From the NCBI RefSeq assembly GCF_003334305.1, contig NZ_QOWS01000001.1: 64,000 nucleotides of DNA; one strand, written 5' to 3'. The notes beneath the pieces were generated by a model. The model ran no database searches and was not told the DNA's origin. It was given only the letters and a program-made list of their open reading frames with translations. Position numbers and translations under genes: made by a program. Of the stretch, positions 9,387 to 50,061 are shown one piece after another. The stretch's first letter is position 1. Each line of letters begins with the position of its first letter. This stretch comes from Escherichia coli (GTDB lineage Bacteria; Pseudomonadota; Gammaproteobacteria; Enterobacterales; Enterobacteriaceae).

Positions 9387-9559
9387 AAAGTTCTTTGACG
9401 TTGCATTGCTGGCGTAAATGTCAGCAATGCAGCATTTCCTCACGATTCTCCTTTGACGATCGCACTTTTTGCTCGTTATGATGGCGTCGCTAGCCTCAGT
9501 AAATCCTTACTCCGGCGGTGCGCAACCCGTGCGCGTGAACCACTATCTGAATGCTCATC

Positions 9560-29834: not shown

Positions 29835-29941
29835 ATATTCATCCCTGAAATGTATTAATGAAATAAACGATATTTTACGCGCAATAAATGTTTGGCGCAT
29901 TAGTTGTTTGAGCAAAAAATATCTGGAAAGCAGATCGCAGT

Positions 29942-30028
29942 AAATAAAAAAACCTGCTGGTGAGGCAGGTTCTTTTATTTACTATTTTCAGGCCTAACAC
30001 CACAGCCTGTGCAACATCGTGTTCCAAC
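29942..30028 (-). ncRNA. orzP: Orz-like antisense sRNA (type I antitoxin), copy proximal to yehL; approximate ends
   Basis: Minus-strand sigma70 promoter (-35 ttgcaa 30058..30063, -10 tataat = plus attata 30035..30040); intrinsic terminator 29951..29971 plus U-run; 5' end complementary to zor leader at 30175..30194. Confidence 0.55.
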
Positions 30029-30034
30029 GAACGA

Positions 30035-30085
30035 ATTATAACCACGGCTGGACCCCGTTGCAATTAAGATAATGAGATTTATAAT
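30035..30085. promoter_or_regulatory. Divergent overlapping sigma70 promoters sharing one palindromic -35 hexamer (TTGCAA)
   Basis: ttgcaa at 30058..30063 is its own reverse complement; plus-strand -10 tataat 30080..30085 (16-nt spacer); minus-strand -10 at 30035..30040 (17-nt spacer). Confidence 0.55.
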
Positions 30086-30266
30086 CCAGACCGTTGGGAC
30101 GTTGCGCCGGATCGAACCTATTTCAAGTCCTGGCTACCGGACGGGGGGTGCTGCAGGTGGTGCCCTGATCCGGAGTGCAACATCGTGGTCCAACATACGT
30201 AAACCAGTATCGACAGGCAGTGTAAGGGTAAGGTGCTGGTGTTGCGCTCCTTAATAAGGAGAGCGG

Positions 30267-30356
30267 ATGGACTCGCTGACACAAAAGTTAACCGTGCTCA
30301 TTGCTGTACTGGAGCTATTAGTGGCTCTGTTACGGTTGATTGATTTGTTGAAGTAA
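30267..30356 (+). CDS. zorP: 29-aa hydrophobic type I toxin peptide, Zor family (MDSLTQKLTVLIAVLELLVALLRLIDLLK)
   Basis: ATG 8 nt after SD ggagag; single TM helix with C-terminal Lys; predicted leader ~174 nt from TSS ~30093; O versus P naming inferred from position. Confidence 0.6.
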   Translation: MDSLTQKLTVLIAVLELLVALLRLIDLLK

Positions 30357-30376
30357 CGGGCAAATTGAAACGCATC

Positions 30377-30404
30377 TAAGGGGGAAAACCGCTTCCCCCT
30401 TTAA
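30377..30404 (+). terminator. Intrinsic terminator of toxin mRNA (copy 1)
   Basis: aaggggga aaaccgc ttccccctt hairpin followed by tt/aat. Confidence 0.6.
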
Positions 30405-30551
30405 TAAAATGATTACTGTTTTTATTAATTCATCATATAACTCATTTTTATTTATAAATTCATCGATTTTATATTCAACGCACCATTTGACCGGGATGTG
30501 AATATTTATGTTGGGCTATTGGCAAAAAATATCTGGAAAGTAGATCGCAGA

Positions 30552-30636
30552 AAATAAAAAAACCTGCTGGTGAGGCAGGTTCTTTTATTTACTACAGTGA
30601 CGCTAACTTGCTGATTGTGCAACATTTCGTACCAAC
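30552..30636 (-). ncRNA. orzO: Orz-like antisense sRNA (type I antitoxin), copy proximal to yehK; approximate ends
   Basis: Same architecture as copy 1: -35 ttgcaa 30666..30671, minus -10 at 30643..30648, terminator 30561..30581; 5' end complementary to leader 30785..30802. Confidence 0.55.
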
Positions 30637-30642
30637 GAATAA

Positions 30643-30693
30643 ATTATAACCATATCCACACTCCATTGCAATTCAGTGAGTGAGATTTATAAT
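30643..30693. promoter_or_regulatory. Divergent overlapping sigma70 promoters sharing a palindromic -35 (copy 2)
   Basis: ttgcaa 30666..30671; plus -10 tataat 30688..30693; minus -10 at 30643..30648. Confidence 0.55.
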
Positions 30694-30874
30694 CCTGCCC
30701 GTTGGGAGGTTGTGCCGGATCGGACCAATTTTAAGTCCTGGCTGCCGGACGGGTGGTGCCGCAGGCGGTGCCCTGATCCGGAGAGCAACGTTTCGTACCA
30801 ACATACGTAAACCAGTATCAACAGGCAGTGTAAGGGTAAGGTGCTGGTGTTGCGCTCCTTAATAAGGAGAGCGG

Positions 30875-30964
30875 ATGGACACGCTGACACAAAAGTTAAC
30901 CGTGCTCATTGCCGTACTGGAGTTATTAGTGGCTCTGTTACGGTTGATTGATTTGTTGAAGTAA
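30875..30964 (+). CDS. zorO: 29-aa hydrophobic type I toxin peptide, Zor family (MDTLTQKLTVLIAVLELLVALLRLIDLLK)
   Basis: Differs from copy 1 peptide by one residue (T3 vs S3); SD ggagag; hand-translated, below ORF-track cut-off. Confidence 0.6.
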   Translation: MDTLTQKLTVLIAVLELLVALLRLIDLLK

Positions 30965-30984
30965 CGGGCAAATTGAAACGCATC

Positions 30985-31012
30985 TAAGGGGGAATACCGT
31001 TTCCCCCTTTAA
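30985..31012 (+). terminator. Intrinsic terminator of toxin mRNA (copy 2)
   Basis: aaggggga ataccgt ttccccctt hairpin. Confidence 0.6.
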
Positions 31013-31017
31013 GAAAG

Positions 31018-31073
31018 CTATACTCGTCATACTTCAAGTTGCATGTGCTGCGACTTTAATTATCTAGAGTATA
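31018..31073. repeat. Short ERIC variant (both ERIC termini joined, central part absent)
   Basis: ctatactcgtcatacttcaagttgcatgtgctgcg matches the left end of the ERIC at 295..428, and aattatctagagtata matches its right end. Confidence 0.65.
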
Positions 31074-49929: not shown

Positions 49930-50061
49930 ACCAAACGACTCGGGGTGCCCTTCTGCGTGAAGGCTGAGAAATACCCGTATCACCTGATCTGGATAATGCC
50001 AGCGTAGGGAAGTCACGGACCACCAGGTCATTGCTTCTTCACGTTATGGCAGGAGCAAACT
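49930..50061 (+). promoter_or_regulatory. TPP (thiamine pyrophosphate) riboswitch / THI-box in the thiM leader
   Basis: cggggtgcccttctgcgtgaaggctgagaaatacccgtatcacctgatctggataatgccagcgtagggaa matches the THI element consensus, directly upstream of thiM. Confidence 0.85.

Follow-up and report, generated by a model that had tools for sequence, protein, structure and literature searches.

Two tandem Zor/Orz type I toxin-antitoxin modules in Escherichia coli with copy-specific sRNA-leader pairing cores

The region described here is a tandem pair of Zor/Orz type I toxin-antitoxin modules, zorP-orzP (copy 1) and zorO-orzO (copy 2), in a 64-kb window of an Escherichia coli genome, the window being the whole stretch of 64,000 nt that was analyzed. 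We consider it very probable that each of the two antitoxin sRNAs pairs productively only with the leader of its own toxin mRNA. The preliminary description, made from the sequence of the window, had proposed two divergently encoded sRNA/toxin-leader pairs insulated by diverged cores, and this proposal agrees with the published biology of zorO-orzO and zorP-orzP. It should be mentioned that the locus, the sRNAs, the pairing site, the specificity bases and the idea of crosstalk prevention have all been published (2010, 2013, 2016 and 2024). The locus was first found by Fozo et al. 2010 (PMC2887945) and received the names zorO-orzO and zorP-orzP from Wen et al. 2013 (PMC3919570); further papers on the locus of O157:H7 EDL933 are Wen 2016 (PMC5397157) and a survey in mSystems 2024 (PMC11264685).

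Identity and setting of the locus

The tandem duplication has a period of ~608-610 bp in the window sequence. The locus is flanked by yehL and yehK/yehI, based on the flanking ORFs and on RefSeq annotation at homologous loci, in agreement with the published genomic position yehL-yehK/yehI (PMC2887945). Both copies match the Rfam family OrzO-P (RF02083, gathering score 60) on the minus strand, with 99.9 bits at 30021-29946 for copy 1 and 88.8 bits at 30629-30556 for copy 2. These matches begin 7 nt after the published +1, so the Rfam family model lacks the 5'-terminal 7 nt of the pairing core. The copies were named from the V1 triplet (sRNA +9 to +11; GAA in OrzO and ACG in OrzP, PMC3919570), which reads ACG in copy 1 (+1 at 30028) and GAA in copy 2 (+1 at 30636). 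Other Rfam matches in the window are a Peptidase-S11 RNA motif at 9475-9555 (+) and a TPP riboswitch at 49931-50027 (+).

A scan of the two hydrophobic 29-aa toxins against NCBIfam matched no family model, so their membership rests on identity to the published ZorO and ZorP together with the Rfam matches. Both peptides are the same as in O157:H7. ZorP is defined by T3S (PMC11264685), and the toxicity of zorP (Z3290) has been reported (PMC2887945). RefSeq/PGAP annotation lacks both the zor toxins and the orz sRNAs in all sampled genomes (window 29860-31020; L001-L011).

The 1161-bp region at 29860-31020 matches several E. coli chromosomes at 100% identity, e.g. those of the non-O157 strains M8 and N1286, and O157:H7 genomes at 99.2%. 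The few positions that differ from O157:H7 are all outside the cores, and the sRNA and leader cores show no differences. The zorO-orzO/zorP-orzP locus of EDL933 is the same locus as that in the window, being alike in position, gene order, 29-aa toxins, cores, leader targets, V1 triplets, promoters and UTR length, without substantive difference. The features of both copies are collected in Table 1.

Table 1. Features of the zorP-orzP (copy 1) and zorO-orzO (copy 2) modules in the window
Feature	Position	Strand	Basis or remark
Copy 1: orzP antitoxin sRNA gene, ~85 nt	29944-30028	-	+1 at 30028; RF02083; -10 at 30040-30035; predicted fold
orzP terminator hairpin, then U-tract	29951-29971	-	predicted fold
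OrzP 5' pairing core GUUGGAACACGAUGUUGCAC, sRNA +1 to +20	30009-30028	-	
OrzP V1	30018-30020	-	reads ACG (30020-30018); V1 definition, PMC3919570
orzP -10	30035-30040		promoter scan
Palindromic TTGCAA, common -35 of both copy-1 divergent promoters	30058-30063		promoter scan
zorP -10	30080-30085		promoter scan
zorP mRNA 5' UTR, 174 nt	30093-30266	+	-10 position and published numbering (PMC5397157) fit +1 = 30093
zorP leader target of OrzP (+83 to +102)	30175-30194	+	6(1)13, A.G mismatch at 30188
zorP RBS AAGGAG (+164 to +169)	30256-30261	+	
zorP toxin ORF, 29 aa, MDSLTQKLTVLIAVLELLVALLRLIDLLK (MDSLTQKL...)	30267-30356	+	ORF list; T3S relative to ZorO
zorP terminator hairpin, palindromic AAGGGGGAAAACCGCTTCCCCCTT	30378-30401	+	sequence
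Copy 2: orzO antitoxin sRNA gene, ~83 nt	30554-30636	-	+1 at 30636; RF02083; -10 at 30648-30643; predicted fold
OrzO 5' pairing core GUUGGUACGAAAUGUUGC, sRNA +1 to +18	30619-30636	-	
OrzO V1	30626-30628	-	reads GAA (30628-30626); published OrzO V1, PMC3919570
orzO -10	30643-30648		promoter scan
Palindromic TTGCAA, common -35 of copy-2 divergent promoters	30666-30671		promoter scan
zorO -10	30688-30693		promoter scan
zorO mRNA 5' UTR, 174 nt	30701-30874	+	published numbering (PMC5397157); promoter scan
zorO EAP region (+73 to +102)	30773-30802	+	published numbering, PMC5397157
zorO leader target of OrzO (+85 to +102, EAP 3' end)	30785-30802	+	18 bp, G.U at 30790
zorO RBS (+164 to +169)	30864-30869	+	
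zorO toxin ORF, 29 aa, MDTLTQKLTVLIAVLELLVALLRLIDLLK (MDTLTQKL...)	30875-30964	+	ORF list
zorO terminator hairpin	30986-31009	+	sequence

Pairing cores and transcript ends

Within the 64-kb window, GTGCAACATCGTGKTCCAAC is found only at 30009-30028 and 30175-30194, and GCAACRTTTCGTACCAAC only at 30619-30636 and 30785-30802. The four core strings are thus present where the preliminary description had placed them, with a chance expectation of about zero, as neither core pattern turned up in any of 100 shuffles of the window that preserved its dinucleotides. The A/G difference between the two strings of copy 2 does give the G.U wobble that had been described, with sRNA U13 opposite leader G30790. 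The T/G difference in copy 1 places sRNA A7 opposite leader G30188, which is an A.G mismatch and not a wobble.

In the promoter scan, a perfect TATAAT box precedes each sRNA +1 position by 7 nt. In each copy, the TTGCAA -35 drives the sRNA as well as the toxin mRNA, with spacers of 17 nt and 16 nt to perfect TATAAT boxes, and the same -35 and -10 sequences are reported to be >99% conserved (PMC11264685). The sRNA 5' ends were mapped by primer extension (PMC2887945). These mapped ends include the cores, which make up the 5'-terminal 18-20 nt of each sRNA, and the V1 numbering agrees with +1 at 30028 and 30636; the assignment of the cores to the sRNAs is borne out in this respect. On the mRNA side, starts at 30093 and 30701 reproduce the published 174-nt UTR with its RBS at +164 to +169 (PMC5397157). 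The leader targets end 73 nt upstream of the ATG in both copies, the zorO target being 73-90 nt upstream, as compared to 72-92 nt upstream in PMC2887945.

In the mechanism that these features suggest, each copy consists of an ~85-nt sRNA transcribed divergently from the gene of a 29-aa membrane toxin, with one TTGCAA -35 for both promoters. The first 18-20 nt of the sRNA would pair with +83/85 to +102 of its own 174-nt toxin mRNA leader. [quoted passage not shown] The bound sRNA would block standby-dependent translation and trigger RNase III-dependent decay. The copies differ at sRNA +6 and +9 to +11 (V1), with the leaders changed to match, and because of these matched differences each sRNA would be expected to form a productive duplex only with its own leader.

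Four-way pairing predictions and published experiments

Duplex prediction for all four sRNA/leader combinations, as proposed in the preliminary description, favored the cognate pairs by about 7-15 kcal/mol. Energies were obtained from a core-restricted duplex fold and, as cofold ddG, from whole molecules with the delta-28 leader. OrzP pairs with zorP as 6(1)13 with the A.G at sRNA +7, giving a core duplex of -34.0 kcal/mol and a cofold ddG of -23.5, and OrzO pairs with zorO through 18 contiguous bp with the G.U at +13 (-31.3 kcal/mol and -21.5). The non-cognate combinations are weaker, with a longest run of 8 for OrzP:zorO (-18.9 kcal/mol and -10.2) and of 9 for OrzO:zorP (-24.4 kcal/mol and -13.0). 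Full-length RNAduplex of sRNA versus leader was discarded; it ignores intramolecular structure and returned artificial end-to-end duplexes of -52 to -66 kcal/mol. In predicted folds, the accessibility of the leader cores is moderate and rises modestly from the full-length to the delta-28 leader, with the mean P(unpaired) going from 0.31 to 0.45 and from 0.35 to 0.47.

A published rule for functional pairing sets a minimum of 15 contiguous bp, or of 17 bp if there is one internal mismatch (PMC3919570); by this rule both cognate pairs pass and both non-cognate pairs fail. The native OrzP:zorP 6(1)13 pairing resembles an OrzO 6(1)11 mutant that represses fully (PMC3919570). The window sequences also reproduce the published 5(1)12 pairing of OrzP-V1 and the published complementarity of OrzP to zorO of 15 nt (15/18 paired).

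Experiments in the EDL933 system bear directly on these predictions. The toxicity of zorO is rescued by OrzO and not by OrzP at equal RNA levels, and a three-base swap of V1 switches specificity: OrzO carrying the OrzP V1 loses repression, a compensatory zorO V1 mutation brings repression back, and zorO is repressed by OrzP carrying the OrzO V1 (PMC3919570). The first 18 nt of OrzO are sufficient, as repression was obtained when they were grafted onto OhsC or IstR-1, and full repression of zorO needs RNase III and does not need Hfq (PMC3919570). Binding of OrzO at the EAP region (+73 to +102) was seen by lead probing, and OrzO also blocks translation at the EAP/standby region (PMC5397157).

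Insulation is shown experimentally in one direction only, that of OrzP on zorO. As the searchable literature yielded no experiment on the repression of zorP by either sRNA, the reciprocal half of the insulation rests on the in-silico prediction. From the predicted duplexes we infer that OrzP would repress zorP and that OrzO would not. Weak cross-talk of OrzO with zorP is conceivable at high sRNA levels, as this combination keeps its 9-bp run and core duplex in the predictions.

Divergence between the copies and covariation of the cores

Differences between copy 1 and copy 2 were counted by segment, as differences over columns. The sRNA terminator shows 0/39, the sRNA body (29985-30008) 17/24, the sRNA core 4/20, the promoter region 16/64, the 5' part of the leader 9/82, the leader core 7/20, the 3' part of the leader 1/72, and the ORF 3/90. 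Divergence in the leader core exceeds that in the remainder of the leader (Fisher p = 9e-4); for the sRNA core there is no such excess over the remainder of the sRNA (Fisher p = 0.77). As the preliminary description had noted, the cores do differ between the copies, at the sRNA positions +6, +9, +10 and +11 and at the seven leader positions, but these do not make up a solid block of 8-10 nt. Its description of near-identical flanks fits the leader core, with 0 differences in ~17 nt upstream and almost none downstream. It does not fit the sRNA side, where the sRNA body and the promoter region on either side of the core differ as counted above. The cores as the sole hot spot of divergence were rejected, with entropy peaking in the sRNA body. 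This body (29985-30008 versus 30595-30616), between core and terminator, has diverged more than any other segment; its predicted fold is not the same in OrzP and OrzO, and its differences are mostly fixed between types.

For comparison across loci, 24 units from 16 genomes were used, including the window, 11 E. coli strains with complete units, E. whittamii and two more Escherichia species; the sample is small and its genomes are phylogenetically related and thus non-independent. Four core types were found among the 24 units: P GUUGGAACACGA..., O GUUGGUACGAAA..., Q GUUGAGAUGCCA... and R GUUGGGGCGCCA..., of which R is a single variant paired to a Q-type leader. The R variant is the fourth sRNA core, GTTGGGGCGCCATGTTGCAT, of the single-copy locus of E. 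coli H22 (L011, ~643-666), and no name for it was found in the Zor/Orz papers. Judged from its sequence and its Q-type leader, it looks like a Q-derived variant.

The Q type corresponds to zorQ/orzQ, a third locus type described in the 2024 survey (PMC11264685) and absent from the window, with the core GUUGAGAUGCCAUGUUGCAC. It has the same architecture and the same conserved pairing-region ends as the zorP and zorO loci, and its variable zone at sRNA +5 to +11 varies together with its own leader. Among the sampled strains it is found at the second position instead of O, or beside O (L002, L003, L007, L008). The survey describes the pairing region as "quite variable", which "may prevent crosstalk", and reports that cognate pairing potential is kept in 99.8% of 2,439 loci (PMC11264685).

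Compensatory changes on both sides were found at 5/20 intermolecular pairs (sRNA +5, +6, +9, +10 and +11). Over the four core types, 95% of cells are paired, versus 26-40% after a shift of 1-3 columns between the partners. In the leader core, 5-7 differences are fixed between types and there is no polymorphism within a type; in the remaining unit most of the polymorphism is unfixed. For the leader core alone, the contrast of fixed with polymorphic positions gives Fisher p of 6e-5 to 1e-3; this is the only statistic that is independent of the type definitions, which were taken from the sRNA core. The same P and O cores, mismatch and wobble included, are seen in E. whittamii and two more species of Escherichia. 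A scan of genome contigs recovered only these three non-E. coli species, with P or O cores equal to those of the window and no new types. All nine of the sampled two-copy loci are heterotypic. Taken as sequence evidence, these observations support the view that matched, mutually distinct pairs are maintained.

The imperfections of the cognate duplexes lie at 30022/30188 in copy 1 and at 30624/30790 in copy 2, and occur also in L002, L011 and L013-L015. In the P, Q and R types, sRNA +7 is unpaired with its own leader (A.G, A.A and G.A, respectively), and the O type has the G.U at +13 instead of the +7 mismatch. The mismatch of P and the wobble of O do not vary among the sampled E. coli or in the three other species of Escherichia. 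This conservation suggests that they are either tolerated or selected. We put forward, as a tentative and rather unlikely extension, that the cores are a few discrete, ancient specificity alleles (P, O, Q and Q-derived) held epistatically, whose imperfections are functional, e.g. in setting a repression threshold or in positioning RNase III cleavage.

Selection, drift and other explanations of the cores

The preliminary description had suggested that selection diversified exactly the base-pairing interface. The fixed leader-core differences and the covariation at 5/20 pairs speak for such selection, but "exactly" is overstated, the sRNA body being more diverged than the core. An alternative is neutral drift with compensatory fixation in each copy, which would make the lack of cross-talk a by-product. 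It fits the single-copy strains and species that keep P, O or R unchanged without any need for insulation (L004, L009, L010, L011, L013, L014), and it fits the sRNA body and promoter spacer, which are at least equally diverged and have no known role in specificity. However, the leader core, 166 nt away from the sRNA core, carries only fixed differences, whereas of the variable sites in the 147 nt between them 7 are fixed and 38 unfixed (P versus O), a distribution which points to epistatic maintenance of matched pairs. Drift also does not account readily for two-copy loci that are heterotypic without exception, nor for types that are discrete and identical across species. We regard drift as unlikely.

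A clearly less probable explanation is that the sRNA 5' cores have been shaped mainly by other trans targets, the toxin leader being one of several partners. Loci with an orz gene only do exist, e.g. OrzPmg of MG1655, and ~30% of E. coli genomes, K-12 included, keep an expressed orzP without toxin or target (PMC11264685), which speaks for this explanation. This arrangement was confirmed in E. coli K-12 (L012, ~945-968), where the orphan OrzPmg has its orzP-type core and promoter intact without leader target and without toxin. Against this explanation, neither core has a further match in the 64-kb window, leader and sRNA change together at five positions, and no alternative target is reported (PMC11264685). 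That the repeated 18-20-mers act on DNA, as protein-binding sites or recombination repeats, and not as an RNA-RNA interface is highly improbable: they do form direct repeats on either side of a divergent promoter, at a distance of 166 bp, but the first 18 nt of OrzO repress zorO from unrelated plasmid-expressed sRNAs, compensatory mutations behave as RNA pairing predicts (both PMC3919570), and OrzO protects the mRNA site in lead probing (PMC5397157).

Comparison with other type I systems and implications

[quoted passage not shown] In these systems the pairing site is of the standby type and is exposed by 5' processing, the RBS being sequestered, which would hold for Zor/Orz as well. These systems are unrelated to Zor/Orz in sequence, and they do not have tandem duplicates with paralogue-specific cores. 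The full-length zorO mRNA is translatable, in contrast to the full-length tisB mRNA, which is inert (PMC5397157). The ibs-Sib systems of E. coli, a comparison made by Wen 2013 (PMC3919570), are similar to Zor/Orz in having several paralogous pairs per genome, with short recognition regions that discriminate their own target. However, the Sib RNAs are cis-antisense RNAs with full complementarity and two recognition domains, whereas the Orz RNAs are divergently encoded and have one domain of 18-20 nt.

The tandem zorP-orzP and zorO-orzO modules thus carry a real RNA-RNA specificity code that is recoverable from raw sequence, in a system that has itself already been characterized.
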